Positions 10,647-53,163 of a stretch of DNA of 64,000 nucleotides are shown piece by piece. This DNA comes from Octopus sinensis (Eukaryota): positions 124,001-188,000 of the forward strand of contig NW_021832430.1 in NCBI RefSeq assembly GCF_006345805.1. Direction: 5' to 3'. Position numbers and translations under genes: made by a program. Positions within the stretch are counted from its first letter, which is position 1. Each line of letters starts with the position of its first letter. The notes beneath the pieces were generated by a model. The model saw only the letters and a list, made by a program, of their open reading frames with translations, ran no database searches and had not been told where the DNA came from.

Positions 10647-12169
10647 ATGGTTCTTTCTTCAAAACAGACTCAAGACTTGTATTTTTAGTAGTTACAAATT
10701 TCCATAGAAACACAGCTATTGCTGCATATCTCAAAACCGCCGGCTTTCAAAATTCCTATCAAGAATTTGTGGCAGAAGCCAATATAGTTGGTCAACCTAA
10801 CTCACATTGGCAGGAAGAAAGTTCTTTAAATGAAACCAAATACGACGACTTGCTAAAAAATAAATGGACTTCTGTCATTAGACTTCAAAAAAGAGTTTTA
10901 AATGTTCATAATTTTAAGGTTTTGGAATTAGAATCGCTTGTGGGTAATGTCAGGAATGAAGTTTACTTGAACGGGGACATAAAACGGAAAAATAATTCCA
11001 AATATTTTATTCCAATGTTGCCTGCCAAGTTGGTTCTCACAGGCCACCAGGGAATTGTCACCAGAGTTGTATTCAACGTGGTGTTTAATCAGATAGCATC
11101 AGCAAGCCACGATGGAACTATAAAAGTAACTGCTATATTTTATTTATTTAAATTATATTTTTAATTAAAAAATAATATATTAAAAATATTTGGAAATGGT
11201 CATTTTATTTGAATTTAATATTTTTGGTGTGGGATTTTGAAAGTGGGGATTTTCAGTACACACTTAGAGGTCATACAGGCCCGATTCTGGATCTTTCCTT
11301 TGACTTTGACGGGAAAGTGTTAAGTATAATATCAATAAGTCACATTGAAGGTTCTTGTTCTTGTGATATGACTATAAAACTATGGGATTTGGAGTCAAGG
11401 ACATGTGAGAGGACACTGTACGGTCACGACCACACAGTGTCCTCAGTGACATATTCCTCGAGATATATTGTATCAGCCTCACGAGATGGGACTGTTAAAG
11501 TATGGGATGTTTCGAATGGGTTGATATTGGTAATCATTGGTAGGTATTGTGTTCGGTCTATGACAGGACATGATGGTTGGGTGAGGATGGCGAGGGTCAA
11601 TCGAGAGGAGAGTCTTATTGCCAGTTGTTCTGATGATAAGGTACTGCTCTGTGTGGTTATATTCCACTAGACTGTTCGTATTTGGCAATTCACATCGGGA
11701 GAGTGTCAGGTGGTGATGTACGGACATGAGCACTTTGTGGAATGTGTGGCTTGGGGTAGTTCACAGGCTAATTCGGATGTTTGAATTTGTTGGTTACGAT
11801 TTAGGCCTGTTTGGTGGCTTCGGGATCGAGGGATAGAACAGTTCGTCTGTGGAATGCCCATTCTGGTTTGTGTCTTTGGATCATGGTGAATTGTAAGAGG
11901 GGTAATGTCTAGTCTGGACATGACAATTGGGTTCGCTACGTCTGCTTTGAACCGGAAGGGAATATTCTAAGCAGTGTTGCTGATGATGGGTTTATGAAGG
12001 CTTGGCAAGTGGAGACTGGCACTTTGGTCAAATCTGTTGCACTTCATGACAATTTTGTGACTTGTTTTGGTAGATTTTTGTTTTTATAGCCGTAGAATAT
12101 CATCCGAAATTTCCTGTTGCTGTGAGTTGTAGTAATGACACGTCTGTCCGACTTTGGGACTGTCGATAA
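10647..12169 (+). CDS. PAFAH1B1: Lissencephaly-1 homolog (LisH + WD40 dynein regulator)
   Basis: MVLSSKQTQDLNTAIAAYL..KWTSVIRLQKRVLELES, WD repeats (GHDHTVSSV, SASRDGTVKVWDV, GHDNWVR), ends WDCR*. Introns of 24-30 nt plus one 101-nt intron with a TG acceptor. Confidence 0.95.
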
Positions 12170-12914
12170 TCACTATTTTGTCAATTAAATATTTGTTAAA
12201 ATTTTTTTAATTGTGAACTTGAAAAATATAAGGCCTTTTCGATTACTCTAATAATGCCTAAGACCAGTGAGTTGATCCACAATAGTCAGACAAGCTTGTC
12301 TGGTCGCCGTCATCAACATGGGCAAGATACTTTGCTCGCTCGTGTTACATTCTAGACGATAGAATTACTCTTTTTAAGAGAAAAACAGTCATTTCATCAA
12401 ACTATTTCCTGGAAAACTACAGCATTTAACAAATAAAAAAAAGTGCAGCTTAAAAATGCGGGAGTGGATGAAGTGATCAGATTGTTTTGGTGTCTTGGTG
12501 TCTTATAAGTTATAAGAATCACATTATCTGTTGAAAGAAGTTTCTCGATGCTAAATAAACTTTTAGCGAAAGGCAGAAACTTCAAGGATGAAAATATTAA
12601 ACCTTATTTAATGTGTTATTTTAATAAATTTTAATTCTAAATGATATATAAGTTCCAGTAGAACTGACGTAAGGTGAATGATTTATTAGCCATGTTTTTC
12701 TGGGAAGTACGTGCTTGTGGATAAAATCCCAGCCTCTTGGAAAATTTTATTTAAAATTTTGAATTTTTGACTATTTTAATTTAGATAACTAAAAGTCCAA
12801 GAAATTTAAAAATAAGGTTTGTTGCTAAAAATCTGATTATTTATAAATTTTAGTCCCGATTTTTAGTTCCCGCCTCCAAAAAAGGGCCAAAAGATTGCTC
12901 AATTTATCTGGCCA

Positions 12915-13033
12915 TAACGTCATATTTTCTAATTATAAGGTCATATTTTCTAATTATAAGGTCAAAAAAGTCATATTTTTAAAATCATATTTGAATCATT
13001 TTAAGGTCATATTTGTGGTTGCCTTACTTATAA
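12915..13033. repeat. Short tandem/degenerate repeats (gtcatattttctaattataag x2 plus further gtcatattt copies), possibly a DNA-transposon end remnant
   Basis: Direct inspection; family not identifiable. Confidence 0.5.
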
Positions 13034-13164
13034 CGAATTTGATGCGTATTTCAACCCGGAAATGATAAGCCGTTATATAATTAGTAATTTAAGCATAAAT
13101 TTGATTGATAACGTAATATCGAAATAAGACACAATCTCTTGTTGCATACAGCCAACAACTAAGA

Positions 13165-14719
13165 ATGAACATTCCGACTTATACAAGAAACCGACTTGTA
13201 AATTGTGGATCATCCCTTATAACAGAAAACGACAATCTCGCACTACTGAGAATTATTGGCAAGGGACGACAGGTCAGGAATGTATTGAGAACCAAATAGT
13301 CTTTAAGTGCGGCAATTGTCCAGATTTTCAAAGCTAATGAGCCAAATTTTGATAAATGGACATATGATAACACTGGGATTGCCTGTGCAGTTAAAGATCA
13401 CATACATCGGTGTTATGCAATCTACTTATTTTCCCTTGCCCAGGTTTTTTTTAGTACCTTAGGTTCCAAGAATCGAATTTTATTGATAGAATCTCTGTAT
13501 TCGGGATTTCATTACTTGACTTTAAAACCAACATTTCATACATTTGAGTCCAAAGTTCGTGATTATGATTTACTTAGAATGCAATATATGGACTTAATTT
13601 CTCTAATAAATTCGAGGCCGAACATTTCTACCAAGTGCTCAGAGAGAAGGCTAGGATCAATCGTTAGAGTTACGTTTCATTTATATACACAGGAAAGCCT
13701 CAATTACCTCAAACCACGATATCCCCTGTATTGCCTACCGAAATTTCTATTCCTTCTCCAACAAATAAAGTAGACACGACAAAAAACAAAAAACCAAAAA
13801 AGTTCAAGAAAAAAGTAATCACTACCTCCATGGTAAGTGGACCTGAAGATTTCAAGTAAACTAGTTACGAATATCATCAATAGGCATATTTCTCATGTCG
13901 GGTGGGACCCTACCAAGGGATTTGATGTATCCTACCATTGCTAATGTAAAGCTTGCTCAAGCGGATCCTGCTTTGTTGGAAATAATTAACAATGCGGGAA
14001 TTAACACTAATCTCATTAAAGACACAGAAACCTTGAACTTCATCTATGACTTTATTGAGAAAAATGGGGGGATGGAAGCTGTTAGAAATCAGACTAAAAG
14101 TTCCTTTTTTATTTGAACTGTAGAAACTTCTCTCGGTGAGAAAAAAGTTGAAAACAAACCTCCTCCTGTTGCTCCGCCATCAATACCCTCCTCAAAACCC
14201 CCTGCTCCAAGATCTCCTGCTTCAAGGCCACCTGAGGCTCCACCAGCCCAGCCACCGTCAGTTCCACCCAAACCTGAAAATAATGTTGATGTCCCTCCAC
14301 CTCCTCCAATGAGAAGTGAGCGTTTGTTAACAATTCAGACCTTTCAAATGACTCCACAAACGCGGCACGTCCTCCTCCACCGCCTCCTCCAGTCTCTCTT
14401 TCTGTAGCAGGTTTTTGACAATTTGATAAATTAAATTAGCAAAGCCTGTCTCTTCCGCTTCCTCTTCTGCTTCTGCTCGCAGTGACCTACTTTCAAGTAT
14501 TAGACAGGGGACTAATCTGACGAAGGTACTCAATTATGAATTATATATTTAAGGTCGTCGAGGAGGACAAACCAGTCGTCGTTGAGGAAGGAGGGATCTC
14601 GGCTATGCTCAAAAAAGCCATCGAAAACCGTCACGATGCCCTAAATTCTGGTTTTTCTATTCTGACCAAATCTAGATGATGATGACGACTGGGCTGATAG
14701 AGATGAATGGAGTGATTGA
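13165..14719 (+). CDS. WASL: WASP/N-WASP family actin nucleation-promoting factor
   Basis: WH1 (FHTFESKNAIYGLNF), basic region, CRIB (VSGPEDFKHISHVGWDPTKGFD), poly-Pro, WH2 (RSDLLSSIRQGTNLTKV), acidic tail DDDDWADRDEWSD*; GT-AG micro-introns. Confidence 0.93.
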
Positions 14720-15213
14720 AAGAAAATTTCTTATAACTTTGGTTAGTATTTTTCTAATATATTGTCTTTCTCTGTTTTTATTTTCATAAATTAGTCACAA
14801 AAAGTCATTTCCAAAGATAAGATAATTCAAATCCGTGTTCAAAATTAGATTTATTAAACTGATTTAGAGTGTGGAAGGGTAAAACAATTAGGATTTGCCA
14901 ATGGCTGCATCGCGAATAGCAAACGAGTTGCCTTGCAAGATTTCTATAGATATTCTCTATTAGATACTAGATATTATGTATTCTTCAAAATTGGGAAAAT
15001 CGGTCATCAAGGTAATAGAAGATTGATCCATATCAAATTTAGTTCAATTAAAGAATTTAATAATATTGACATAGTCCATTCTATCTTTCATTTACCCAAA
15101 ATCTCAAAAGACGTCTAAACACTAAGGACAACCTAAACCAAACAGAACATTATACTTGTTGAGCTAATTAGAACTACAGTTAGGAAAATAGGCATAAATA
15201 ATATTAAAAATTG

Positions 15214-16273
15214 TTATCTACGTTGAATAATAATCACGACAATAAAAATAACGACGAGAAGCAGAACGACCAAACAAATGAGAAATTTCCTTTTCTAAGC
15301 GTTTTTAGATGATTAAACCCTTAGTTTTCTATGATATTCGACAACTTTTTCAATGTCGAGACGTCCGTCGTCTACATAGTCGAGCACTCTGTCCAAGTTG
15401 AACGAAATGTGGTCAATGATCTCTCCCTACTTTCTCAAATGATGATTTTACTTGTTCTTCTATTTGTAGTGAAAAACTTTCCATCAAGCAATTCAATTCG
15501 CAAATCTCTTTTTCCAATTTTGTAATTTCTCGATGGCGTTCCTCCACCTTAGTTAAAACGAATTGTTTCTGGGAGGAGGAAATATCCAGAGTGAACAAAT
15601 TAGTCGTGTCGTTGAGGAAAATCTCGGCCAACTGGTCTTCTGTAGGTTTTTTGTCCACTTTAATGAATGAAATATAAAATAACTTATTTCAAGCTGTCTT
15701 TGAATGGCTTCTCGAGTTTTCCGTTGATAGTCTTTCTGAATTTCCGTATACTTATCTAATAACTGGATGAACCTTCGACGAGATGAAAAAAACTTCGAAA
15801 AATCACGCTAAAACTAACCTGGTTTTGTTTAATACGATATTCTGTGGAAGTTGCATTCAGAATCCGTTCTTGATCAACAGAATTGGAAAATTCTGAGATA
15901 TTCATAAAACGTGTAATCACTTTTGATTGAACTGCTAATTCCAATAATCAAATTTTTTATTTCGGTCATTTGATCAAAAAGTAGTTCACGTTCTGTAAGC
16001 TAAGCATATTTAGTGTGTTCTACCTTTGCAGTTCTCGTAGGTTGTTAGGATTGTTTTTTGCAGTTTTTCCACGATTTGAATTTTTGCAGAAAGTGAATTG
16101 AGCGCAATCCATATTTCTCGACCCTTCAATTTGTCAATTCTAAGTTACTTCAAGATTTAATTCTCGAATATTTCTATCCTTTACTGGTTTAAAAGTCAAC
16201 TTTTTTGTATTGATCTATTAATATTATAACTGTTGGTAACCTTATCAAGTTGTGATAATCTTTCTCTACCCAT
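15214..16273 (-). CDS. Plasma-membrane-type syntaxin (syntaxin-1-4-like Qa-SNARE)
   Basis: MGRERLSQL N-peptide, Habc (IQRQLEI), SNARE motif VEERHREITKLEKEICEL..IEEQGEIIDHISFN, C-terminal TM; 7 GT-AG introns. Confidence 0.88.
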
Positions 16274-16641
16274 TCGATACCACACAAAATTATTTCTTTT
16301 AAAATATTTGGTTTTCCATAATTAGCAAAAATTACAAAACTTAATTTTTAAATATTTTAAATCATATTGTACAATTTAATCAAAAGAATTAATCAAAAGC
16401 ACAAATTATATTAGCTTTCTTTACTGAAATAGGTCAAAAAAACTTATCAAAAACAGCAAATAATATATTTATCAGAATAATCTCTTGTTGAAAATTCAGA
16501 CCATCTTTGAAAATGCTAATTTTAGTCACTTTTGTAGGATTTTTGAAATATGCGTCCTCATAATTAAAAAAGGAAGCAATCGGATATAATTCGTTAAATC
16601 GATTTGATTATAAATAATTAGAATTCATTTATATCGCTGGA

Positions 16642-16827
16642 ATGCATAAAAATAGGGATAATTTCAAAAAGAACCCTGTTCTGAAAATTTCGAAAAACCC
16701 AACCATTGACAAGAAAAGAATATTCATTGTCTTTCTAGTTGTTGGAACGTCGATTTCTGCTGGTATGTTTGTCGGAAATAAATTATCGACTTTTCTTGAA
16801 GAATATGGAATTTGGAATCCAGATTAG
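16642..16827 (+). CDS. SMDT1: EMRE (essential MCU regulator)-like; 5' end uncertain
   Basis: Single TM with GxxxG (GMFVG) followed by NKLSTFLEEYGIWNPD, matching recalled EMRE KNFAALLEEHDIFVPE. Confidence 0.7.
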   Translation: MHKNRDNFKKNPVLKISKNPTIDKKRIFIVFLVVGTSISAGMFVGNKLSTFLEEYGIWNPD

Positions 16828-18154
16828 CTCGAATACTTATTTTTCATTTGTTTATAATACCAATGTTTTAATTTTATATTCCTGTGTAGCTATGCTGTCT
16901 GAAAAAATCTACTATGGCTTATTTTGGGGTGAATAATTGAAATAGCCATATTAAAGAACACTCAGACAGATCGGTCTCTCTTTCTCTAACAAACAAGACA
17001 AAAGATGTTGTTTTGGATTCACGATGAATCTTTTTTATTTCGAACATTTCGTCTTTGTAGATATATTTTTGTCAGTGATCAATAAGATTTGTAATTTAAT
17101 TAATTCGATATTAATTGCTTATTGCCTATAAAAAAGATTAATTAAGCTCTCTAAGCCTCTATGATATATTGATTCGAGCTTGAATGAATTTTCTAAAAAG
17201 CTGTTGCACAGGGTTTCTTAATTGTATTTTTATATTTTGTAGAATAAACAAAGAAACAAAAAGCAATCAGGGACTACCCGCAGAGAGAATTGAAAAACTG
17301 TTCACTTTGAGAACGGCTATTGAGACACGCTCAAAGAGCCAGTTGTTTCTAATTCATCCGAGGTGCCGGTCTCTTTCTGCGAGAAAACAAAGAGTAGATG
17401 GTCCTAGCGTGCCAGAGGTTTCGACTGACACTGGTCTATGGCCCTAGAAAGAAGATAGTCTTTTCTACAAGATTGTATTATTTTGTATCAGTTCCTTTAC
17501 AATCGTTTTACCTAAAACCAGTGAAGTAGACTTTTTACAAAGTTTTAGTTCAATGTGTTACAGAATTATGATTATAGATAATATATTCTCCTTACATTAG
17601 TAAGGAAGATTTTAAAAGGATTTTTTGCAAGTTTTTACATCACCATTATTTTTGTGCTTAAAATTACAAATCATAACGTCTTTACAATAAGAAAAACTTC
17701 CTCAAGATTATGTTTTGAAATTTGAAAGTCAGTATATTTGTTTGAGCACAATTCACAAATACTAAAAAACGTATAAACACAGGCGTAAATGTATCTTATT
17801 TTCCCTTAAAAACCAGTGATTATTGCATCATTTCATTCTATAAATAATTCCATATCCTCCATTACTGCGTAGTAAAGATTCCACTTTATTTTATAACTTG
17901 AAAACACTTCATAGTAAAGATGCCACTTGATTTCTCAACAACTCGAACATTTTTATCTAAAATATTAATTATCCGACATTAAAGTGACTTTATTTTAAAA
18001 GTTCATCTCTTTTTTCAAGGTAAAAAGTTTTTTGTAACTGCGAATAATAACACAAATCAGGATTTTATCAATTAAATGGAAAACGATGGTTCCATAACTT
18101 ATAATATCAAATAAACGAAGAGGCAAAGTAACAATATCTCATTAAACAAGTGAA

Positions 18155-22200: not shown

Positions 22201-22305
22201 TTTCATTGAAATTCGCTGCACCTAGAAATCCTTTTTTCGAATAATTTTCTTTGTTAAAATGCTAAGTTATTTATGACAAATTCATTCAAATGTGAATAAA
22301 ATGAA

Positions 22306-24512
22306 TTATAATAAAATGTGCTCATTCGTACTGGATTCCACAGTCCGAGACGACACCGACCCTGAGAGGACACATTTACGATTATTAGAGGAAACACTCT
22401 CCACGGATTGTCTACAACTGTAACACACCCACACACCTGTCAGCTTCCACCGTCTGATCTAACACATTACAGATCTCGGCAACAGCAAATGGTACGTCAA
22501 ACTGAGACTCTCCCATCGATTCGGGCATGAAAAATAAATTAGAAACCATTCCAGGATCCTTTTTCACACTACTCGTGCTGGAACAACTATTCCCACTCTT
22601 CTGTTGTGGCAGACACGTCGGAGAATTGGTGAAAGGAAGAGTAGCAGTGTCACAAAACGGTGGATTCAAAGGCAACTGAGTGTTTTGTTCAATGTGAGGT
22701 AAAAATGGCCCCGTAAGTGAAGAATTCATGCAGTTAGGCAAGGAGTTGGGAGGGACTGGAGGTGCTTGAATGACGGAAGACATCAATGGAGGGACTGTGT
22801 TTAGAAGTGATGATTGGATCACTGAACAGGAAGACACAACGGATGGACTATAATTAGTTCGAATGGACAAAGATTCCTCTTGTTGGGTAACTACAGGCAA
22901 GTTGTAGTCAGACACAGAATTGCCACTCCTCATAAGCGAATCCCTTGTTTGGTTAAGGAATCCGCGGAGACATGGATGTTGTGTATTAGGCCTGGCAAAT
23001 GGCTTATTGGACTCATTCAGTGCATTGGCCTTGGACAATGAACATTCCAATGACTTAATCCTGCCAACTTAGCACAGACGATTACTTATTAGACAGGTCG
23101 TGGATAGTCTGCTCATGTCGACCCACCACCAGTTGAGCACTCCTGTATCTTTCCTCCATCGTGTCTCTCTACAATTAGACCAATCTCGACATACTGCAGT
23201 CCGAACAGAGTTAATGAGGTCGTCGTACTCCTTAAGATGAGATCTACTCCTAACTCTCACAACAGTACAAGTGATTGGCTATCTTAACTTGACAATCCCT
23301 CAGTTGTAATTCGTTCTTATGTCTTTCCCTTTCCATCAATAATATTTCTGCTTTTTCCTCGTATATTTGACTAGACCTAACTATAAACAGGCTACTTCAT
23401 TGTAGAATTAAGAAGATCGTTGGTGAGAGACAGTTTACTCTCCAACTGACACTTTTCTTTGGTGAGGTCCTCCATTTGCCGGTCTCGGATTGAAAGTGTG
23501 TCCTCAGTCTCCTCCAATCGAACTAAAAGTAAACAGTGAGACCAACTTTGAAGAGTGCACTGAGATTGTTCACTCTGATTCAGTCTTTTAAGACAAGACA
23601 AATAATTTTCTCTTAATTCATGAGGACAGAGCAGATCTTTCACCGTTTTTTTAAGATCAACCACGTCGTCGTCTCTCCCATCCACGAAATACTGAGACAA
23701 TACATTCTCAATCAGCACTTCTTGTCTCTACACAATCAATTCACATAAACTACCTCCATGACTGCTTCTGATTTTTCCAATCTGCTCACATTGCTCATCA
23801 AACATTCGATTCTGTAGGTTTTTATTACGTAATTAATACTCGTTGTCCTTTGATGTCAGTTGACTGTTCAATTCGCAGATTTTTTGAACCAATTCTTCAT
23901 TTTTTGCGAGAATTTGATCAATCTCCAATTTCTTTTCAGAGAAGAGTGTCTTTATTTCATCCTTCTCACGTTGCTCGGCTTTATTTTGCTTTTCCAGGGA
24001 TTCTAGGGAAGCTTCGAGCTGTTGGCAGTGGTCACGTGTTTGTTGGTTGTCCTCAGAAAGAGAGGAATTCTGTTCGTTTAAAATAAAGGGGATTTGAACC
24101 ATTTCTTGTAGTTCGAGTATTTTTTCGTTCAGAGATTCGATTTGAGTCCCCAAATGTATAAATTCAAGTCGCTTATGGGCTAATTCCTTCTCAGCCTCGA
24201 GGTATTTCACTTTAAGGAGTTAAAAGTAAGAAAAACCTCTACGGGAGTCTAAAAGATTTGAAAAAATCTTAGAATGTTAACAAAGATGGTTACTTTGGGG
24301 ATTGACAGAAAAACAGTTAAGACCACCAAGCACAATATTGCACATATGGATGTGAATAACAGTCCTATCATCCATTGATCCATATTGGAGGTAATATACG
24401 AATTTTCTCCAATAAAATGATTCTTTTATTGAGTTTTATAAAATACTACTTTTATTATAACCCAGTTTCCAATTAAGTCGAATATATCCTTCGCATGTTT
24501 TAAAAGTAACAT
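22306..24512 (-). CDS. Single-TM, long coiled-coil, Pro/Ser-rich tail protein (copy 1, apparently intact; cTAGE5/TANGO1-like architecture)
   Basis: Spliced model: TM WMIGLLFTSICAILCLVVLTVFLSIP, heptad-rich middle, PPVPPNSLP-rich C-terminus, stop at 22306; start approximate. Confidence 0.65.
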
Positions 24513-26863
24513 TTTTATTTCTTCGAAAACCAACAAAACCCAATTACACGTAAATTAGGGTTTTCGACATTTATTAAAATTAATTAGATAAAATATTATT
24601 CATAATTATATTAAATAATAGCTTTATTTTCTAACAATAATCAGAAAGGCCAGATAATTTTTCTTCGTCTTATAACGGTTCCTTTCTAAAAATAAAGTGT
24701 GTTTCTTGCACATGTGGAATTCATAACAGATATGGTCCTACAAAAGTTCTAATATCATCATCATTTCTCTTATTCCTTTTCTCCTAAACGAAGAATTTGA
24801 TATCCTTGATTGAAACCCTCTGAATGATCTTCCATAGCTATTTATCAAGTATAAGATTCATATTATTCCGAGACAAAATATTTAATCAATTTAATTATAT
24901 ATGATTTTTCAAGCTCTAACGTCTAAAGCGCAAAAGTTAGTTTCAAAGTCCTGAAAATTCGCATTTGAACCGCATATAAACAAGCATTAACTTTTTTAAT
25001 GAAATCAAAAAAATATTTTTTAAAGAATCAAAGTTCTATTCGTAAATTGTTGTTTTCTGCCTGAAGAGAAAAATTTTAACCATTTTTCGATAAAAAGAGT
25101 TGCTAATGACATTTTTCAACTTGCTATTGACATTTTCATGAATAACAAGACGCTTCCATACAGATAATCTACTTTCTATTTATTATTATCTGCATATTTT
25201 TTTTCTTAGTTCAATGTTAGTATTAATATTTCGCCTTGCTGGTATTTTCACAATTTGTTTCAGTTTGTAGTGAAAGTCTTTAAATCTAAACTTGAATAAT
25301 TTGACTACGGTGGTGAAATAAATCTCAAATCGATAAAAAACGGTCAAAGATCTCTCCAAGTTCATTTTGTGGTTGAATATTCAAAATATCTTCAAAATCA
25401 AATAAAAACCGCAAAAAAAATTGGTAAATAATTGCGGAAAGCGGTTTAGTCAAGACTGCGGTGTATTTTCTAAAATGATTTGAATATTTTCTGAAAGCTT
25501 TTGATCTTAATTTGAACAGAAATATTGGGTTTAGACAGTATATTGAAAACTAGTGGCTTGTAATGCACTCTTTAATTTAAAATACAAAAGTAGTCTTTAA
25601 GATAGAAACAATAACTTGGTTTATTTTTTTAATTAGCTGTTATTAAAAAAGATTGGCATATCCTGATAAGAATGCGGATTTGGTTTTATAGTCTAAACTT
25701 GTATTGAAAGGATTTTTATAAAGCTTAAATGATGAAATAATAAACAGTATATATTTGTATTTTCCTAGTTGCTAATTATTGCTTAAATATTAAAATGATT
25801 GTTTGGTTTGCGAAAATCAAATAATTGTTTAATCAAGTATTAATAAACTTATTTCTATACAAAGAGGGTTTTTTTTTATTTAACCCAAGAATCACCAACA
25901 ATTAATTGAGTTAAAAGTCCATTAAATCATAATAGGTCGTCGGTTAAAATGAGTTTTAATTCTATAATATTTTCTGTTGTTTTTAATTAGTGATTCATTT
26001 TATTAGAAAACGTTCAAACCGAAAAATAAATGAAAATATTAGTAAATAATGTTATGAAACTGAATTAATCTTTGAGATTTAAAAAAGCTGAGGGCAACAA
26101 CTTTTTGATGGAAATTTTGTCTAATTCTTTTTCCTTATTACAATATGATTTCATTCAATATTTTCTCCAAACATTGAATATTAAAAATTGAATACCTCGA
26201 TAATAAACTGCCGACACCGACCGCATGGAAATAAAAATTCAGACGTGTCACTTGATACATAAATTTGAGTAACTTTTCTATTTCCATTTGCCACGGCGGT
26301 GCAGATTGCATTCACTTCTGCACATATAGTAAGCCCATATGAAACGTTTTCAACATTGCATCCTGAAACAGTCTCAAATAACAAATAACCTGAATATATG
26401 GATTCGTCACTGCACAAGACCGCACACCCAACTCTGAATTTGCTATAAGGAGAATATGAGCGTTTCTTTATTCTTAGTGCCTCTGCAATTGCCAGGTGTG
26501 CTAAAAATTATACATTAAATATACATATCATTCTTATCACTTAATTTGAATAATATATACAAGATTTAAATATAACAGAGACCATAAAATATTTTAACTT
26601 GTTTAAGAGATATTTTAATTATATTGAAACATAAAGCCTAATAACAATTTGAAACTTTTTTGGTTTTTATCTACTTTCTTGGGGTGTAGCGTAAATTATG
26701 ACCAAATCAGGATAATAGATTACACTGCCTTTAAATGTAATCAACTTGTTCTATGAGTCCTGGATTAAGATGATACAGAAAACTTTTCCTTTTTGTTTCT
26801 ATTATGCATGTTTTAATAAAATTAAGATGCCATTTTGTACAGTGACTGTATATAATATACCAA
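22316..26863. repeat. Segmental tandem duplication, copy 1
   Basis: Near-identical to 27420-31959, from atgtgctcattcg to atataccaa. Confidence 0.97.
26065..26531 (-). pseudogene. CDA: Cytidine deaminase, copy 1 (premature stop in last exon)
   Basis: Same as copy 2, but last exon reads FGENIE-TGA because of small indels near 26140-26157. Confidence 0.6.
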
Positions 26864-27419
26864 GAGAGATCCTAAGGGACCGATCTCGTGAAGAGGTCGA
26901 ATCACCTGAAAATAATTTTTTTTTAATTTTTTGGCTTGAAGGTTTTGGGGGACCTCATCATGTGAGTCGAGGACTTTCTGTTGTTCATTTTAACAAAAAC
27001 GCAGAAAATAATTTTTTTTTAATTTTTTGGCTTGAAGGTTTTGGGGGACCTCATCATGTGAGTCGAGGACTTTCTTGTTGTTCATTTTAAAAAAACGCAG
27101 AAAATAATTTTTTTTTAATTTTTTGGCTTGAAGGTTTTGGGGGACCTCATCATGAGGTCAAATCACCTTCATTATCTCATGAATATCTTTTTAAGCTCTT
27201 TATTGATTTCATGTTCCTAAGGGACCGATCTCGTGAAGAGGTCGAATCACCTTCATTATCTCATCATATTTAACCTCTTTATTGATTTCATGTTCCTAAG
27301 GGACCGATCTCTTTGAAGAGTTTGAATTCATCTTCTTTATCTTACACATTTCCTTTTTTAGATATATAAGTGTACACGGACAGACAGACAGACAGACACA
27401 CAACTTAGTGTTTTATATT
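26864..27419 (-). mobile_element. Helitron-like non-autonomous fragment with internal minisatellites, at the duplication junction
   Basis: About 96-bp unit x2.6 and a cctaagggaccgatctc unit x3. Minus-strand end taatataaaacactaagttgtgtgtctgtctgtctgtctgtcc resembles Helitron 5' ends with (CTGT)n, but the terminal TC is missing. Confidence 0.55.
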
Positions 27420-29610
27420 ATGTGCTCATTCGTACTGGATTCCACAGTCCGAGACGACACCGACCCTGAGAGGACACATTTACGATTATTAGAGGAAAAC
27501 TCTCCACGGATTGTCTACAACTGTAACCACCAACACACCTGTCAGCTTCCACCGTCTGATCTAACACATACAGATCTCGGCAACAGCAAATGGTACGTCA
27601 AACTGAGACTCTCCCATCGATTCGGGCATGAAAAATAAATTAGAAACCATTCCAGGATCCTTTTTCACACTACTCGTGCTGGAACAACTATTCCCACTCT
27701 TCTGTTGTGGCATACATGTCGGAGAATTGGTAAAAGGAAGAGTAGCAGTGTCACAAAACGGTGGATTCAAAGGCAACTGAGTGTTTTGTTCAATGTGAGG
27801 TAAGAATGGCACCGTAAGTGAAGAATTCATGCAGTTAGGCAAGGAGTTGGGAGGGACTGGGGGTTCTTGGATGACGGAAGACATCAATGGAGGGACTGTG
27901 TTTAGAAGTGATGATTGGATCACTGAACAGGAAGACACAACGGATGGACTATAATTAGTTCGAATGGACAAAGATTCCTCTTGTTGGGTAACTACAGGCA
28001 AGTTGTAGTCAGACACAGAATTGCCACTCCTCATAAGCGAATCCCTTGTTTGGTTAAGGAATCCGCGGAGACATGGATGTTGTGTATTAGGCCTGGCAAA
28101 TGGCTTATTGGACTCATTCAGTGCATTGGCCTTGGACAATGAACATTCCAATGACTTAATCCTGCCAACTTAGCACAGACGATTACTTATTAGACAGGTC
28201 GTGGATGGTCTGCTCATGTCGACCCACCACCAGTTGAGCACTCCTGTATCTTTCCTCCATCGTGTCTCTCTACAATTAGACCAATCTCGACATACTGCAG
28301 TCCGAACAGAGTTAATGAGGTCGTCGTACTCCTTAAGATGAGATCTACTCCTAACTCTCACAACAGTACAAGTGATTGGCTATCTTAACTTGACAATCCC
28401 TCAGTTGTAATTCGTTCTTATGTCTTTCCCTTTCCATCAATAATATTTCTGCTTTTTCCTCGTATATTTGACTAGACCTAACTATAAACAGACTACTTCA
28501 TTGTAGAATTAAGAAGATCATTGGTGAGAGACAGTTTACTCTCCAACTGACACTTTTCTTTGGTGAGATCCTCCATTTGCCGGTCTCGGATTGAAAGTGT
28601 GTCCTCAGTCTCCTCCAATCGAACTAAAAGTAAACAGTGAGACCAACTTTGAAGAGTGCACTGAGATTGTTCACTCTGATTCAGTCTTTTAAGACAAGAC
28701 AAATAATTTTCTCTTAATTCGTGAGGACAGAGCAGATCTTTCACCGTTTTTTTAAGATCAACCACGTCGTCGTCTCTCCCATCCACGAAATACTGAGACA
28801 ATACATTCTCAATCAGCACTTCTTGTCTCTACACAATCAATTCACATAAACTACCTCCATGACTGCTTCTGATTTTTCCAATCTGCTCACATTGCTCATC
28901 AAACATTCGATTCTGTAGGTTTTTATTACGTAATAATACTCGTTGTCCTTTGATGTCAGTTGACTGTTCAATTCGCAGATTTTTTGAACCAATTCTTCAT
29001 TTTTTGCGAGAATTTGATCAATCTCCAATTTTTTCAGAGAAGAGTGTCTTTATTTCATCCTTCTCACGTTGCTCGGCTTTATTTTGCTTTTCCAGGGATT
29101 CTAGGGAAGCTTCGAGCTGTTGGCAGTGGTCACGTGTTTGTTGGTTGTCCTCAGAAAGAGAGGAATTCTGTTCGTTTAAAATAAAGGGGATTTGAACCAT
29201 TTCTTGTAGTTCGAGTATTTTTTCGTTCAGAGATTCGATTTGAGTCCCCAAATGTATAAATTCAAGTCGCTTATGGGCTAATTCCTTCTCAGCCTCGAGA
29301 TATTTCACTTTAAAAAGTTAAAAGTAAGGAAAACCTCTACGGGAGTCTAAAAGATTTGAAAAAATCTTAGAATGTTAACAAAGATGGTTACTTTGGGGAT
29401 TGACAGAAAAACAGTTAAGACCACCAAGCACAATATTGCACATATGGATGTGAATAACAGTCCTATCATCCATTGATCCATATTGGAGGTAATATACGAA
29501 TTTTCTCCAATAAAATGATTCTTTTATTGAGTTTTATAAAATACTACTTTTATTATAACCCAGTTTCCAATTAAGTCGAATATATCCTTCGCATGTTTTA
29601 AAAAGGACAT
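27413..29610 (-). pseudogene. TM/coiled-coil gene, copy 2 (frameshifted)
   Basis: 2-nt deletion near 29030 (SEKIGD*) and 1-nt deletion near 27569 (AEICMC*) relative to copy 1. Confidence 0.6.
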
Positions 29611-31959
29611 TTTTATTTCTTCGAAAACCAACAAAACCCAATTACACGTAAATTAGGGTTTTCGACATTTATTAAAATTAATTAGATAAAATATTATTCA
29701 TAATTATATTAAATAATAGCTTTATTTTCTAACAATAATCAGAAAGGCCAGATAATTTTTCTTCGTCTCATAACGGTTCCTTTCTAAAAATAAAGTGTGT
29801 TTCTTGCACATGTGGAATTCATAACAGATATGGTCCTACAAAAGTTCTAATATCATCATTTCTCTTATTCCTTTTCTCCTAAACGAGGAATTTGATATCC
29901 TTGATTGAAACCCTCTGAGTGATCTTCCATAGCTATTTATCAAGTATAAGATTCATATTATTCCGAGACAAAATATTTAATCAATTTAATTATATATGAT
30001 TTTTCAAGCTCTAACGTCTAAAGCGCAAAAGTTAGTTTCAAAGTCCTGAAAATTCGCATTTGAACCGCATATAAACAAGCATTAACGTTTTTAATGAAAT
30101 CAAAAAAATATTTTTTTAAGAATCAAAGTTCTATTCGTAAATTGTTGTTTTCTGCCTGGAAGAGAAAAATATTTAACCATTTTTCGATAAAAAGAGTTGC
30201 TAATGACATTTTTCAACTTGCTATTGACATTTTCATGAATAACAAGACGCTTCCATACAGATAATCTACTTTCTATTTATTATTATCTGCATATTTTTTT
30301 TCTTAGTTCAATGTTAGTATTAATATTTCGCCTTGCTGGTATTTTCACAATTTGTTTCAGTTTGTAGTGAAAGTCTTTAAATCTAAACTTGAATAATTTG
30401 ACTACGGTGGTGAAATAAATCTCAAATCGATAAAAAACGGTCAAAGATCTCTCCAAGTTCATTTTGTGGTTGAATATTCAAAATATCTTCAAAATCAAAT
30501 AAAAACCGCAAAAAAAATTGGTAAATAATTGCGGAAAGCGGTTTAGTCAAGACTGCGGTGTATTTTCTAAAATGATTTGAATATTTTCTGAAAGCTTTTG
30601 ATCTTAATTTGAACAGAAATATTGGGTTTAGACAGTATATTGAAAACTAGTGGCTTGTAATGCACTCTTTAATTTAAAATACAAAAGTAGTCTTTAAGAT
30701 AGAAACAATAACTTGGTTTATTTTTTTAATTAGCGGTTATTAAAAAAGATTGGCATATCCTGATAAGAATGCGGATTTGGTTTTATAGTCTAAACTTGTA
30801 TTGAAAGGATTTTTATAAAGCTTAAAAGATGAAATAATAAACAGTATATATTTGTATTTTCCTAGTTGCTAATTATTGCTTAAATATTAAAATGATTGTT
30901 TGGTTTGCGAAAATCAAATAATTGTTTAATCAAGTATTAATAAACTTATTTCTATACAAAGAGGGTTTTTTTTTATTTAACCCAAGAATCACCAACAATT
31001 AATTGAGTTAAAAGTCCATTAAATCTTAATAGGTCGTCGGTTTAAAATGAGTTTTAATTCTATAATATTTTCTGTTGTTTTTAATTAGTGATTCATTTTA
31101 TTAGAAAACGTTCAAACCGAAAAATAAATGAAAATATTAGTAAATAATGTTATGAAACTGAATTAATCTTTGAGATTTAAAAAAGCTGAGGGCAACAACT
31201 TTTTGATGGAAATTTTGTCTAATTCTTTTTCCTTATTAACAGATATGATTTCAATATTTTCTCCAAACATTGAATATTAAAAACTGAATACCTCGATAAT
31301 AAACTGCCGACACCGACCGCATGGAAATAAAAATTCAGACGTGTCACTTGATACATAAATTTGAGTAACTTTTCTATTTCCATTTGCCACGGCGGTGCAG
31401 ATTGCATTCACTTCTGCACATATAGTAAGCCCATATGAAACGTTTTCAACATTGCATCCTGAAACAGTCTCAAATAACAAATAACCTGAATATATGGATT
31501 CGTCACTGCACAAGACCGCACACCCAACTCTGAATTTGCTATAAGGAGAATATGAGCGTTCCTTTATTCTTAGTGCCTCTGCAATTGCCAGGTGTGCTAA
31601 AAATTATACATTAAATATACATATCATTCTTATCACTTAATTTGAATAATATATACAAGATTTAAATATAACAGAGACCATAAAATATTTTAACTTGTTT
31701 AAGAGATATTTTAATTATATTGAAACATAAAGCCTAATAACAATTTGAAACTTTTTTGGTTTTTATCTACTTTCTTGGGGTGTAGCGTAAATTATGACCA
31801 AATCAGGATAATAGATTACACTGCCTTTAAATGTAATCAACTTGTTCTATGAGTCCTGGATTAAGATGATACAGAAAACTTTTCCTTTTTGTTTCTATTA
31901 TGCATGTTTTAATAAAATTAAGATGCCATTTTGTACAGTGACTGTATATAATATACCAA
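27420..31959. repeat. Segmental tandem duplication, copy 2
   Basis: Near-identical to 22316-26863. Confidence 0.97.
31163..31627 (-). CDS. CDA: Cytidine deaminase, copy 2 (intact if the GT-TG intron is spliced)
   Basis: SYSPYSKFRVGCAVL..GCNVENVSYGLTICAEVNAI..PCGRCRQFIIE|FGENIEIISVNKEKELDKISIKKLLPSAFLNLKD*. Confidence 0.92.
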
Positions 31960-45215: not shown

Positions 45216-45289
45216 ACTAAAGAACCAAATATACTTATTAGTGATTAACATAGAACTGGTTTTTAGTAGAAAAATAAGTTAAGAAAATT

Positions 45290-46808: not shown

Positions 46809-47279
46809 TTTAATTATATTGATCTTTAAAAAATGCAACAAACTACAAAATCAACTAAGGACTATACACGTTTTGATTTTTTATTTGTATTATATAAATT
46901 ATTCTTCAATTAAAAATTAATTTTTTTGCAAATTATTATTTATCGCTTAATTTTATCGAGATGGAAAAGGTAAAACTACGAATCGGAATAACATACAACA
47001 AGTATAAATAAATAAAAAGATGCCAGAGTAACCACATTATAAAATGTTGATTTTTATTCTCACATTTTTAATGATCCTTTCGGTTAATTTTGATAATGAT
47101 AGTCACATTAATTTAGAGAAAATTCCATTTTTACAAGTTTGGTTTTTTTATCAAGTTAGTGAAGTCTTAATAAGAAAAAGTTTAAAGTTTGTTGTTATTC
47201 TCAGCATTCCATTATTAAAAAGTGGAATGGGGTGTCTCCGTCAATGAAAGTCCATTAACTATAGATATGATTTAGATAT

Positions 47280-47800
47280 GCATTGATCCTATATTATTTT
47301 ACGCAGCTTTAAAAGGTCACAATATATAATTTTAACAGTTCTGAACATCATTACGTTCATCGAAGTTGGGATTACTTTTCAACGATCTTGGAAGCACGTG
47401 GAAGTCGAGAAATTACATAGCAAGTGAATTGAAGTTAATCCGCAATGTAAATATAAACGTTGTATTACTGGTTCTCACATGGGATGGAATAGTATCTAAA
47501 TTTTAAAAGCATAACAAAAACTCTCCAAAAGTCGAAGATTGAACTCGTGCCTATGTCCATACGATCGTGATTAAAACGACATTAGAGAGCATACATCCGG
47601 AATACAAACTCTCAGTTACGAATCATGTAAAAAGTATTTCAATGGATGTCAGGGCAAACAATGAGCGACGGAATGGAAGAAGTAGCCACCACGAAACATC
47701 AATGGAATCTGATGAGGGTACGGACATTGTATCTCAACCTATAAGTCCGGAGAAAGGAGGCGGGTTGGAAGCGAAGAGGGGGTAGCTGAAATTAATTTTA
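47280..47800 (+). mobile_element. Degenerate REL-type LINE C-terminus (same group as 20100-21130)
   Basis: FIEVGITF..VEVEKL..LTWDGIVSKF..RAYVHTIVIKTTLESI. Confidence 0.7.
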
Positions 47801-48009
47801 TCTGGATAAAATATTTTTCCACTTTAATTAATAAATCATTTTACAGAATTATTTCTTTGACAGGCAATTTAATTATTAAAAAACCAAATTTAACTAAAGT
47901 TACACTATTTAATTAAAATTTTTACTCCATTTTGTTGGAGATCTCTTTCCTCCTTTTAGGGGAAAATAGAAGTTTGATTTTTATCCAATACACATAACAT
48001 GGTGTTTTA

Positions 48010-48290
48010 CAAAAAATATTGTTGTAGTGCTCGACCTCGCTAAGTTTCATCATTCAAGTGTTGTAAAAGAATTATATGATGAATTAATATTTGTATCATT
48101 TTACTCCCCGTGGTTGAACCCAATTGAGAATCTTTTTTCTAAAATTAAATCTCATACGACCAGGGGCATCAACAAAACATTACTCCATAAAAACTATACT
48201 TCCGTATTTCGTAGCTAAATAAACAATGGTCATAGCATTACGTTAAAAATTCATAAACTAGTTTTGAATAGAAATGAAATTCTTATCCTA
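48010..48290 (+). mobile_element. Tc1/IS630 DDE transposase C-terminal remnant
   Basis: VVLDLAKFHHS..FYSPWLNPIENLFSKIK. Confidence 0.8.
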
Positions 48291-48621
48291 CAAATTTGAG
48301 AATAAAGTTTTATGTTGTAGAGAGTTAGTTCCTTATTTTGGTCACGTTAATGACGACGACGAGTCAATATTCAAGTTGTCCAGGCTGTTAAAGAGTCTTG
48401 GAAACGATTTAGTCGTCAAAAAAACCAGCACACCGCAAAATTAGAGGCACGTAGGTGACTAAGGTTTCGCTTGTCCAGCCACACAATTTTTTAAGAGCAA
48501 AAGAGAGGACAAAAAAGTTTATTATTCTAAATTAATTATAATTAATTATTTTATTCAAATATTATAATATGGTGGCGAACCAAATGTTCAACATATAAAT
48601 AACTAGACTAGACCTTAATTA

Positions 48622-50445
48622 ATGATATTCGTGTTACTTTGTAATTCTTTTTTAGCTCGACTTATATAGATTTCTACATAGTGAAGTCATCAGAAAATGA
48701 CATGCCAAAGATTTACGATAGGTACCAAGTTGATGGACAAATGACTATCCAATCAAAGAATATAACCACAGATTTAAAAGAAAGTTTTGATTTTTTCTCA
48801 GATTCATTAATTTATTCAGAGGATACTGGTATAAAATAACTAATCTACAACCATAGGTGGAACACACTTCATACATTCTCAGAAATATGGAAATATATAC
48901 ATTTTTCCGGCTTCCTTTGACGGAGTCCAAGAAAAAAGATGCATAAAAAGTAAAAAAATGAAATTTCCCAAAAAAATCTTTCCCAATATGATTCATTTTA
49001 AGGTTTTGTTGACTTTTATATTTACAAGAAATTGCGCGGGACCTATAAATGTCAGTCCGATAATAACGGTGACGTGGGCAGAAATGGGTCTTGTTTTGTT
49101 TGGAAGAAATCAATTTCTTTTAATATTATTCATTCCTATTTATTATTCACGGACATGAATCTGATTCCTGTTAGATACGAGATTATTTTTACAAAAACTG
49201 TCGGTAACCAAACGAATTTAATCAGTAAAAATATTCTCAAATATACAAACTATAAGCAAATCCCTGCTGAAAAAACCGATAAGGATATTAAAAAAATGTT
49301 TCTAAGTATTATTCTCACTTGCTTTACGGACAGATTATTGTCAGAATCGACTCCTTCATAATGGCCATGAAGAGCACTATGATATCTGGAGAGAATTCTA
49401 TGGAGGAGTAGAGGATAACGAAGATTTGTGGAAAGAAAAGCAGGAGAGTCTTGTTGAACTAAAGAGGTGATTTGGGTGATTTGAGTGGCCTAGATTAGTA
49501 GCTGAACATAACAAAAAGACTAGTTCTTACAAGCTGAGACTTAATGAACGAGGAATAAAGCACTGGTACAACCATGGAACAGATTCTTCGAAAAGAAAAT
49601 GTCATCTGGGAAATAAAGAACATGATTTGATGCAACAAGATTCAAATAAATTTTCCGATTTCTCCAATGACAAAATGCTTCCACTTAATTTCAGTTGGGT
49701 GTCATTTGGTAATGACATTGAGTTGATGTTCAGATGCAGTGACACCTGTGAAAGATCAAAAGGATTGCGGATCATGTTGGTCTTTTGCAACAACAGGAGT
49801 ATTTGAATCCCACTACTACATAAAGACCGGTCTTAAAATTGATTTCTCTGAACAACATTTGGTTGATTGCTCGTGGAATCAAATAATAAAGGATGTTTCG
49901 GAGGATTGGACGTCCATTCTTATTTTTTCATAAAGAATTTTGGATTGGTCACCACTTCTGAGTATGGAAAATATCTAGGAAAGGTAAGTGCCTATTTTCA
50001 TTTGAAGGACGTGAACTGTAAACTCGGTCCTTTTAAACAATACATTAAATTTAAAAGTTTCAAAAGAATCTTTCCGTCAGAAAACTCCATAATGAATGCA
50101 CTCATTCAAAAAGGTGGCCTCATCTTGGATGATATTGTAAGGTCCCCTATCCATCGGAATTAATGCGAGTCCTTGGTCCTTTAGCTTATATCACGGTGGA
50201 GTATATTCAGATTCGAGCTGCTGTATTCATAAACTGTTATTTCTTTAGCTTCTCACTTATTGACCCACGCAGTTTTGATGGTAGGGTATGGAACAACAAA
50301 TCATGGCTTGGATTACTGGCTTATAAAGAATTCTTGGGGAACTAGATGGGGGGATCATGGATATATCAAAATTTCACGGAAGAAAAATCTTTGTGGAGTT
50401 ATGAACGAAGTTACCTACCCAGAATTCGATGTCGTCAATCGTTAA
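48622..50445 (+). CDS. Papain/cathepsin-L family cysteine protease with long N-terminal extension (26/29-kDa proteinase-like); one apparent frameshift
   Basis: [60 protein letters not shown]; frame break at about 49880. Confidence 0.88.
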
Positions 50446-50789
50446 CTACTTAATCTTAAATCACACTAACAACCAGTTTTATTCTCTTATTAAAAAAATG
50501 ACTAATTCAATGTGCTGAGAAAATGAGAGGTATTGGTCAAAGATGACTCACAAAATTCTGGGATGTTTGACAACGGATAGTTTTTCGTTGTATATACACG
50601 TCGGTCAGGAGTGAATAAGGTTACATATGGTTTTGACGGGAAAGGCATCCTGACTCCATAGAATGGCATCGTCCTCATATTAAAGCCCGAATTCCGTTAT
50701 TCTCGGCATTAAAACGTGGAATGGGGTATCTCTGCCAATGAAAGTCTCTTATTATTAAAACCAAGATCACCGTCCAAAAAATAGAACTA

Positions 50790-51715
50790 ATTAATTAGGT
50801 GATCCTGGCTTCTCTAAGGAGGGTCCTCATTTTTGCCCGGTGCTGTTCCCTAGTCCCGACACAATTTCTATGAGGGCGCGGTAGTGGAGTTTTAGGGTTT
50901 GTAGGCCAATGCTTCTTTTCCAAGATTTCTTTAAATGAGGCGATGGATAGATGTTCATTTGATCTTTGCAGTGCTTTCCGAAATCTTTTTTGAGTTTTTT
51001 TCGATTTTTTTCACGGTTCGTTTCACTGACAAACCCTCCCCACGCCCCACAATCATAACTAATGAAGGGTTCGATGTATTGCCGGTAGATTGATTGGCGT
51101 GTGGGGAAGCTGATCCATTGCTTGCATTTTCGGAGGAACACTTTTAAGATGTTCAGTTTCTTCATGCAGCTAGTAGTAACATTTTCAACGACATATATGA
51201 CTATCGTAAGTCACGCCGAGGATTTTCTGGGATTTTTTAAAAGGGGATTTCCATGTTGTTTAGATATAAGTTCACTACCATTTTCTCAAGCTTCCTTGCT
51301 AAAGTCATAAGCGTAGTGACTGATTTTTCAGGACTCGTTGATAGTCGATTTATCGAAAGCCAACTTTCGAGATTGTGGAGGTAGTTCTGCAGTTTTGAAC
51401 TTGCCGTGTTAACCTCACGGCTCCGAGTAGCACTCACAATATCGTCAGCGTATGATAGTACGATTGAGTTTTTGTCGTTTGGCAGCGGGAGGTCCAAAAA
51501 AAATAAATTAAAACGAGCTGGCAAAAAGGGGTGGGCATTGAGGGACTCCGTTTGGAAAATATCTTGACATCGATTTTGTATTGTTTTGTTGGATCCTGCC
51601 TCTTCGGCCGCTGAGGAAGTTAGCTAGCCGCTTTTTCAGCTTTTGGTGAATTACACTAAGGTATATTTCCTGGTCAGTATTTTCCTGGGAACGGTGTCAA
51701 AAGCCTGAAAGTCTC
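50790..51715 (-). mobile_element. Degenerate APE-type LINE RT and 3' end
   Basis: DFQAFDTVP, NGVPQ, FNLFFLDLPLP..SYADDIV..LSTSPEKS, IYRQYIEP. Confidence 0.85.
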
Positions 51716-51842
51716 TTTGTGTCTAAACAAAAATATTGAATTATTTTTGTAATAATTTAATTTGTATATGTACTTTATGTTGTAAAAGAGTAAATTAATT
51801 AATTTTAAATCAAAGAGGGAAAACATAAACATTTATTGTTGG

Positions 51843-53163
51843 ATGCATTACTTTGTTAAGTCTGAGGTATAAATAATATAATATTTTCTGCTCGGTTTAT
51901 TTTGTGAATTGGATAGAAATATTTTATTCACATACAACTTATGCGACCTAATTCCAGATTCTCTTCTTAACGGGTTATACACCACTCAGTTTAATTACCA
52001 GAGAACATATCCTGGGATTCTCCATCTGTGGGAATTTCGTAATCTCTCTGTGCCCAGTCAGTCGGACAGATGATATATTTGAAACTGATTTTGCATTTCA
52101 CATTTGGGAATTCCGTTTTAGCGATCCAATGAAACTTGTAATTTGATTTTTAAAATGTTTTTTCAGATTTTTACCACTTCAATAAACGTCGATTCAGATC
52201 ACCTCGTGGAGGTGTACCAAGATATTAAAGGATCGAGAAATCTTGTGATCACAGCCAATCCATCCTTTGTGTACGAACAACTGAATATTAAAAATAAAAA
52301 GTTCTAGTCAAAACAATTCGGAATTAGTCGATTTTGTGTATATTTTTCTGACAAAGCCAATTCCATTGGAGTCTGGGTCCTCTAATGTTCAAAAAATTCA
52401 AATTTTGTGCAAAATGTTGCCCAGTCAAACAAAGCAGAGACAACCCATCATTTTCCACAAATATAAAAATTCAGAGTATTTTATTTGGGAGACTTATTGC
52501 GCTTTTTTAATAATTTCTGTGACAAATGGAGACCCCTTAGATTGTGCATTGCTGACATTTAGGAATAATTTATGGAGTTGTGATGACGATCAGTTGATGA
52601 ATTATTCACGTTTTTTATTATTAAGTTGATTTTTTGATTTAGTCCAGTGGGGAGTTGTTTTGGACACAGTTTTTGGTGATCCTTCCAGCACATTGCAGAT
52701 ATGGTATGTCCTCACCTTCGATGAGGTCGTCACTTTGTTAATTAAAAATAATTATTTAATTGACGGTCATGATCTGATGATGCATCTCCTCGACGTTAGA
52801 CATGCTCGGGTTTATATATAAGATTGTAGATGAGGAAAGAACCGTCTATTTCATGTTTATTTACAAATCAGGTTACCTGCTATTTTTAAAATGGGTCCTC
52901 AATACTGGAAGTTTGTTATTGTATTGTAAACTTGTAGAAATTATTGTTTTGGATGGATGTAATTCTGGTTTAGGGTATTATAGTATATATATTTAGAAAT
53001 TTAATTATATTAAAATCAGTGGCCCGTCTTCAAAAAATGAACAGCTGTCCTGTACTTAATAATAAACCATGGATTACTGGTTCATTTTGTGAAAATAATT
53101 ACATTAGGCCTCTCGTTGAATTATATTTTGCATCCATCGAATCAGATTGCACTTGTCCTTTGA
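51843..53163 (+). CDS. DCAF15: DDB1- and CUL4-associated factor 15-like; 5' end approximate
   Basis: EHILGFSICGNFVIS..FHIWEF, FLKWVLNTG, NNKPWITGLSLNYILHPSNQIALVL* match recalled DCAF15 GHIFLGFSKCGRYVLS..LYWWEF and AWDLNTG. Confidence 0.75.

Follow-up and report, generated by a model that had tools for sequence, protein, structure and literature searches.

The window analysed here is a stretch of 64,000 nucleotides (nt) in the 2.72-Gb Octopus sinensis assembly GCF_006345805.1 (contig NW_021832430.1, positions 124,001 to 188,000; C8901:124001-188000). It is gene-dense, with 33% GC and tiny introns throughout, and is most likely DNA of a dicyemid, a tiny parasite of cephalopod kidneys, co-assembled with its host; this placement was made from gene and intron features rather than from a tree. 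Three genes of the window, LIS1 (PAFAH1B1), a cytidine deaminase (CDA) present in two copies and a DCAF15-like gene, contain introns that start with GT and were read from the sequence as ending in TG. Our analysis showed that GT-TG introns are real: in contigs derived from transcripts, LIS1 and CDA are spliced mainly at TG.

GT-TG introns in three genes of the window

The following features were recognized at LIS1, with their evidence in brackets:

10647..12169, + strand: LIS1/PAFAH1B1 gene, 393 amino acids, 10 introns (Pfam LisH_PAC1 and WD40; gene model; RNA gap totals)
10788-10814, + strand: in-frame, stop-free GT-AG intron, 27 nt (RNA gap total only; missed by the first gene model)
11126..11226, + strand: phase-0 GT..TG intron, 101 nt, separating the TIK codons from the VWD codons and free of internal AG (RNA joint, DNA contig, host position, profile scan)
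11216..11222, + strand: TAATATT within this intron, its TAAT being a plausible branch-point site (sequence)

Nine of the ten LIS1 introns are GT-AG introns of 24-30 nt, and the tenth is the GT-TG intron of 101 nt. A spliced joint from 11125 to 11227 with GT..TG ends was found in 3/3 runs (X2, X3, and X5, from two studies), in one near-full-length contig per run, with depths of 16.7, 124.2, and 54.9 and 255 letters on the shorter side. It should be noted that runs X2, X3, X4, and X5 were taken as transcript-derived from their spliced contigs and not from run records, and that these contigs were aligned at a likeness of 80, because gaps lower the likeness and at 90 no RNA covered the test sites. 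The other gap totals at LIS1 (80 and 160) correspond to the sum of the nine GT-AG introns; in-frame, stop-free introns such as 10788-10814 escape frame-based reading. No joint to the in-frame AG at 11256 was present among the LIS1 joints listed for the X2, X3, and X5 contigs, from which rare isoforms drop out. Contigs of DNA run X1 (depth about 50) spanned 10600-12559 with one differing letter and no gap, and the intron was identical. X1 contigs read TG at both LIS1 and CDA, and the TG bases are thus genuine and not consensus errors, the first concern for which a short-read check had been proposed.

Comparison with homologues led to the same intron end. In a profile scan of all intron ends of LIS1 with nine homologues, the TG end came first with 430.5 bits, against 390.9 bits for the best AG end and 108.5 bits for retention. 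Five placements tied in score when donor and acceptor were scanned jointly, only one of which has a GT donor; the equivalent slides of the TG introns (TA..GG and AA..GT; GG..AT) have none. The in-frame AG located 30 nt downstream of the TG would delete conserved residues, and a gene model restricted to AG lost the first WD motif of LIS1. Furthermore, host LIS1 is interrupted by a GT-AG intron at the identical codon (its exons end TIK/gtaag and resume ccag/VWDFE), indicating that the LIS1 intron is an old position whose end differs.

Both CDA copies lie on the minus strand:

26065..26531, - strand: CDA copy 1, start codon tentative (Pfam dCMP_cyt_deam_1)
26172..26195, - strand: phase-0 GT..TG intron of copy 1, 24 nt, whose retention gives a stop (RNA gap totals, X1 DNA contig)
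31163..31627, - strand: CDA copy 2, 129 amino acids, intact once the TG intron is removed, start codon tentative (Pfam, homologues, profile scan)
31268..31291, - strand: phase-0 GT..TG intron of copy 2, 24 nt (profile scan with 120 homologues, this end first)

At copy 1, RNA pieces from X2 (25990-26563, 497 nt) and X3 (25998-26548, 474 nt) each contained gaps amounting to 81 letters, with 77 letters lost on balance. The 81 letters equal 24+27+24 plus six copy-1 indel letters, whereas retention or an AG end gives other totals. The removal of 24 nt was thus read from gap totals and not from a joint among the 12 of 70 listed, and its support comes from the two runs crossing the intron, as the listed X5 piece stops short of it. 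An X1 contig covered 25878-26700 (depth about 50) with two differing letters, none of them at the TG. The assembled copy 1 also has an indel and a stop six codons past the intron (about 26139-26152), both absent from the short-read contig, and reads aligned to copy 1 bear letters of the copy-2 type. For copy 2, the profile scan gave 180.4 bits for the TG end and at most 153.3 bits for AG ends, and the in-frame AG 36 nt downstream would delete conserved residues. CDA and a neighbouring gene form a tandem duplication of about 5 kb (window 22300-27400 and 27400-31900).

The third gene is DCAF15-like according to a Pfam match (DCAF15_WD40) and to a later exon that matches a PDB structure:

51843..51866, + strand: predicted 8-codon first exon, containing the sole in-frame ATG that follows the last upstream stop (sequence)
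51867..51890, + strand: predicted phase-0 GT..TG intron, 24 nt, two in-frame stops inside (sequence, copies, gene finder)

Contig C12467 carries two more copies of the gene with the same intron sequence, one of them showing nine differing letters in the 620 around it. A TG intron is the simplest gene model predicted for DCAF15, since the downstream frame has no ATG, no AG occurs from its last stop to 51916, and a 50-nt option ending in AG would leave a stop and no start in the upstream frame. A rival model would do without the intron and begin translation at a non-ATG (CTG) codon at 51888.

The features ascribed to these introns by the sequence-only reading were confirmed at all four sites: they are phase 0, start with GTA and carry a TAATATT that ends 4-5 nt before the intron end. 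Its statement that the frame is kept only if a TG intron is removed agrees with the sequences, but "only" is slightly too strong for LIS1 and CDA copy 2, where in-frame AGs exist.

Frequency and sequence context beyond the window

A self-trained gene finder was run on three tiny-intron contigs (1.46 Mb) and predicted 191 non-redundant genes with 2,116 introns, with lengths peaking at 25-26 nt. When TG ends were allowed at a penalty of 0.1, it listed 43 sites, many of them false calls, and recovered the sites of all three window genes unprompted. We kept the three window sites and 11 outside sites, picked by hand where the sequence resembled an intron and the protein continued sensibly; 28 other sites and one duplicate chitinase copy were dropped. 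Two of the outside genes are backed by homology:

C8697:369661-369636: GT-TG intron of DNAL1, 26 nt, flanking exons matching chain 8j07_m3 at residues 89-118 and 119-148
C12467:155932-155907 and 139594-139569: GT-TG intron of a chitinase in two copies, 26 nt, in continuity with 5wup_A

The chitinase exons match 5wup_A up to residue 418 and from residue 420 (exon residue 2), and are therefore continuous at 418/419. The predicted DNAL1 and chitinase proteins need GT-TG introns for exact continuity with the solved structures, and with these two genes and nine further candidates GT-TG introns do extend beyond the genes of the window. The nine others are candidates only; the 24-mer of RARS2, for instance, is in frame and stop-free and could be coding. 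Three decayed, partial RARS2-like copies on other contigs (L183, L184, L185) keep a TG-ending candidate, which measures only 20 nt there. At C12467:83532, a candidate in a kinase gene was set aside because an in-frame AG follows after another 15 nt, and a GFM1-like locus (C12467:48193) is most simply a homopolymer assembly error. Other irregular ends were also observed. An MLH1/PMS-like gene (C8697:637146, minus strand) may need a GT-GG or GT-TT end, or it holds an indel or homopolymer error, and a cathepsin L-like gene of the window (49870-49990) needs a frame correction near 49900 for which several non-AG solutions offer themselves.

Counting the four backed genes and at most 14 cases among about 2,100 introns gives 0.2-0.7% GT-TG introns, and the contigs outside the window alone (2-11 in about 1,940 introns) give 0.1-0.6%. 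We therefore put the genome rate roughly at 0.1-0.7% of introns; it should be noted that the gene model mis-summed three of six RNA-checked pieces. The sequence-only reading had remarked on an unusually high rate, and three genes among about 176 predicted window introns (about 2%) indeed stand out, but this probably overstates the rate of the genome. For comparison, Table 3 of PMC4528330 gives 23 GT-TG introns in about 60,000 for Drosophila (0.04%), and the comparison rate for Ganoderma is 0.024%. With the strictest filter, TG ends were found at 14 loci and the 14 other dinucleotides at 0-11 each; 10/14 TG ends were phase 0, compared with 29/72 of the other ends (Fisher p 0.04). At penalties of 0.02 and 0.003 the gene finder found none of the three window sites and no TG excess.

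The sequence context does not mark a separate class. TAATATT at -4/-5 occurs in all three window genes and in 14/1,686 short AG introns, but in 0/11 further TG cases, including both homology-backed ones, so that the proposal of TAATATT as a shared class signal failed outside the window. GTA, regarded earlier as a stronger donor than that of most introns here, starts 715/1,686 short AG introns, and its share among the further TG cases (6/11) compares with 42%. A looser TATT near the end was present in five of these 11, against a background of 21% (p 0.06). What recurs is an AU-rich 3' end, often TAT followed by a U-run. All 14 hand-kept TG cases are phase 0; the upstream exon ends in A-purine in 12/14 (46% of phase-0 AG introns), and G stands at +1 in 7/14 (37%). 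The 14 intron ends resemble one another only in AT-richness, and no near-identical repeats were seen among them by eye, without a formal repeat search. The TG introns thus appear to be a tolerated minority and not a class with its own motif, and we treat phase, exon end, +1 G, and U-run as leads.

Likely dicyemid source of the DNA

Conserved genes are present in two versions in the assembly, a host version with long introns located on large scaffolds and a tiny-intron version on unplaced contigs. Both versions were found for LIS1, Prp8, Prp18, and Slu7. The window is read as dicyemid because its intron lengths peak at 25-26 nt and because RPS13 on other tiny-intron contigs resembles that of Dicyema japonicum. 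Median intron lengths are given as 27 nt for Dicyema sp. (text of PMC6543705) and 24 nt for D. japonicum (supplement of PMC13644364). The features that characterize Dicyemida were found, namely an intron peak within 24-27 nt, a GC content of about 35%, and a derived RPS13 like that of D. japonicum. The RPS13 genes lie on C7758 and C10384 and are linked to the window by the same intron architecture; when compared by eye with the published coding sequence from D. japonicum, they have a strongly derived stretch in common with it. On sequence grounds, the tiny-intron RPS13 source appears to be a species distinct from D. japonicum. Among the 120 matches listed per search, the top identities were 57% for CDA and 51% for LIS1, and none was a dicyemid-like close homologue; nor did the homologue search return a dicyemid-like close homologue of RARS2.

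Many likely dicyemid contigs were observed in the host assembly, several of them 370-670 kb long (C8901, C8697, C12467, C9002, C9082, C9510, C7758, C10384, and others). DNA run X11, from the same sample, contained almost none of the window's words. The parasite also appears to retain genes and introns of the minor (U12-type) splicing system. Diverged U6atac genes lie at C8703:380486-380572 (L186, 51.7 bits) and C12470:60136-60247 (L187, 39.6 bits), and C8703 also holds tiny-intron genes. A 54-nt AT-AC intron was found at C8901:32305 (plus strand), in what is presumably a calcium-channel alpha-1 gene, and a 76-nt U12-type GT-AG intron at C12467:235381 and 208196 (minus strand), in a gene that we take to be MCTS1-like. 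Our literature search returned nothing on a minor spliceosome in dicyemids.

Splice site choice and comparison with known TG acceptors

We consider it quite probable that these likely dicyemid introns are spliceosomal introns ending in TG, where the U2 spliceosome docks a UG shortly after the branch point when no AG is there. Intron definition would rely on the 5' site together with an A located about 8-10 nt upstream of the intron end, and the 3' end would then be docked at a short distance from the branch point. Such docking is likely in view of an A peak at -8 in the 1,686 AG introns (0.44, against about 0.30) and of the TAAT in the window TG introns, whose last A lies at -9 or -10. In spliceosome structures, the terminal intron G contacts the first intron G. 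This pairing would be kept at the second step, with U replacing A at -2, and only the -2 contact would be lost. An A-rich exon end (AAG, GAG, or AAA, hence phase 0), which would strengthen U5 pairing, may together with the AU-rich 3' end partly compensate for this loss. In yeast, according to the text of PMC10711555, non-AG sites benefit from poly(U) tracts, and A's in the exon promote the second step. AG would remain preferred where both ends are available: in LIS1 intron 11886-11912, a TG at nt 21-22 is skipped in favour of the AG at nt 27 (RNA gaps).

Two suggestions of the sequence-only reading are modified by these results. Choice of the 3' site by distance fits when the distance is taken from the branch point, but distance from the donor cannot by itself set the 3' site, given a LIS1 intron of 101 nt and a mode of 25-26 nt. 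TG is used as an acceptor, but this does not show AG to be fully dispensable, as an unused AG lies within 28 nt at LIS1, CDA, DCAF15, and chitinase, though not at DNAL1.

The splicing machinery, whose inspection had been proposed, showed no gross lesion in Prp8 or U2AF35. A change in the Prp8 alpha-finger was rejected, since the region is identical to that of the host (residues 717 onward compared), as was loss of Prp18, which is present with a conserved loop nearly the same as in the host, and loss of Slu7, which is also present. U2AF35 is intact on C9510 (L208, C9510:45099-48188) and has Thr for the host Ser in zinc finger 1, a position equivalent to human S34, at which any effect of the change is putative. 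It occurs in four copies, of which L208 is intact while L207, L209, and L210 break off into other sequence within the stretch covered; all carry the Thr. No parasite U2 snRNA was identified in the 48 scored matches, in which host copies dominated. A further-reaching proposal is that extreme intron shrinkage made AG optional, so that ancient AG-to-UG changes became fixed as sole acceptors in around 1% of introns at phase-0 A-rich junctions, aided by a lineage-specific change in the 3'-site reader (the U2AF35 Thr); we regard this as possible but doubtful. If true, this would be an animal in which an otherwise normal spliceosome uses constitutive acceptors independently of AG on a large scale.

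Several observations weigh against docking of UG near the branch point. Only X2 comes from the same sample as DNA run X1; X3 and X5 represent a diverged strain (17-18 letters off at LIS1 and 28 at CDA) whose intron DNA was not seen. As contigs drop rare isoforms, TG is not proven to be the sole acceptor. In unfiltered equal-penalty tests of all 15 non-AG ends, TG scored 31 against 14-36 and 11 against 6-11, and further equal-penalty runs gave 13 against 9-17 and 10 against 3-10, so that TG was not singled out; its excess is seen only with the strictest filter, which was picked after viewing the data. The context enrichment is biased, since the set was hand-picked and the gene finder favours A-rich exon ends. 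The branch point was placed by inference and not by mapping. DNAL1 is a single copy outside the short-read check, where the assembly may have lost an A from a TAG, and the RARS2, POLA1, and RapGEF junctions fell outside every homology match.

The main rival is that TG use is licensed by AG, as in human TG-AG tandems: a nearby AG bound early by U2AF35 would license the first step, and the UG would be chosen at the second, here almost always. The AGs at LIS1 (+17), CDA (+7), DCAF15 (+26), and chitinase (-7/+16) do lie inside the 28-nt limit given in PMC2374985, and the required U2AF35 is present and intact. However, an AG follows within 28 nt of the end in 76% of ordinary introns anyway. The DNAL1 intron lacks an internal AG and its next one stands at +31, in two candidates 60 nt pass without any AG, and no AG junction was listed for LIS1 in contigs that drop rare isoforms. 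We consider this explanation unlikely but worth retaining.

The remaining explanations are much less probable. A dedicated TG class that a special factor or snRNA would recognize by its TAATATT, the strong form of the original proposal, draws on the motif counts of the window genes (3/3 at -4/-5 against 14/1,686 AG introns), but the motif was defined post hoc on AT-rich sequence and is missing from all 11 further cases, which makes such a class highly improbable. An artefact, either assembly errors or a mixed parasite population with expressed alleles ending in AG, has comparably little to commend it: errors probably do occur, as the likely homopolymer error at the GFM1-like locus illustrates, and single-letter LIS1 differences between X2 and X1 indicate mixed genotypes, whereas at a depth of about 50 the short-read contigs carry TG in both LIS1 and CDA and no variant is listed for these sites, and TG recurs in three DCAF15, two CDA, and two chitinase copies and in RARS2 with its three decayed copies. 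Least probable is that the TG introns belong to the minor type, for which variation of the terminal dinucleotides is known. A minor spliceosome seems to have been retained by the parasite, as suggested by the U6atac genes on C8703 and C12470 and by U12-type introns elsewhere, but the 5' sites largely refute a minor type for the TG introns: the 14 TG cases start with GTAA, GTAT, GTAC, or GTTK like the bulk introns, none has RTATCCTT, the complete 5' and CCTTAAC consensus is seen in true U12-type introns of this genome, and the host LIS1 intron starts with GTAAG.

LIS1, an essential dynein regulator, depends on a TG acceptor at a host-shared intron position, with transcript support. Annotation restricted to AG would truncate or mis-splice such genes, which may affect gene-loss claims for reduced dicyemid genomes. 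The ultra-short introns of Dicyema and myxobolids, with medians of 24-27 nt and signals reduced to GTa and AG with weak upstream A's in the text of PMC13644364, PMC6543705, and PMC6736024, are similar in length and weak signals, but only AG ends are described there. No report of TG-ending dicyemid introns was found, including in the text of these three papers (figure-only supplements and Ogino et al. 2010 lie outside this scope), and "GT-TG", "non-canonical", and "noncanonical" had 0 matches in the text supplement of PMC13644364. The present introns thus offer a natural animal test case for 3'-end choice in 22-30-nt introns, a question left open in the text of that 2026 paper.

TG acceptors are known from other systems. 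In the human cases described by Szafranski et al. 2007 (PMC2374985), TG is likewise the 3' splice site of U2-type introns, but never the sole one, with an AG needed within 28 nt; here, in contrast, TG is the site used in the assembled transcript, splicing at the near AGs would break the frame, and at DNAL1 none lies within 28 nt. GT-TG is the commonest non-AG acceptor pair in Drosophila, where 22/23 cases have a similar alternative splice (PMC4528330), whereas the cases studied here are estimated to be more frequent and stand at frame-essential sites. In yeast lacking Prp18, BG 3' sites are activated, and ends of the UG type rank high in usability when compared with other non-AG sites (Roy et al. 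2023, PMC10711555). Such sites need loss or mutation of Prp18 in yeast, which here is present with a nearly host-like loop.

By analogy, the closest precedent appears to be Micromonas, in which 34 small AT-rich introns of BOC1 end in TG or CG, most of them validated by expressed sequence tags, and introners of the IE-B and IE-D types are GT-TG (Verhelst et al. 2013, PMC3879977, which cites similar sites in Denoeud et al. 2010). As in BOC1, a TG-ending minority of short AT-rich introns with weak signals is spliced. Micromonas also has CG ends, and none was verified here. Unlike the Micromonas introners, the introns of the present study belong to an animal, are by eye not copies of one element, and at LIS1 occupy the codon of a host AG intron. 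They are a real, transcript-supported exception to the AG rule in an animal.

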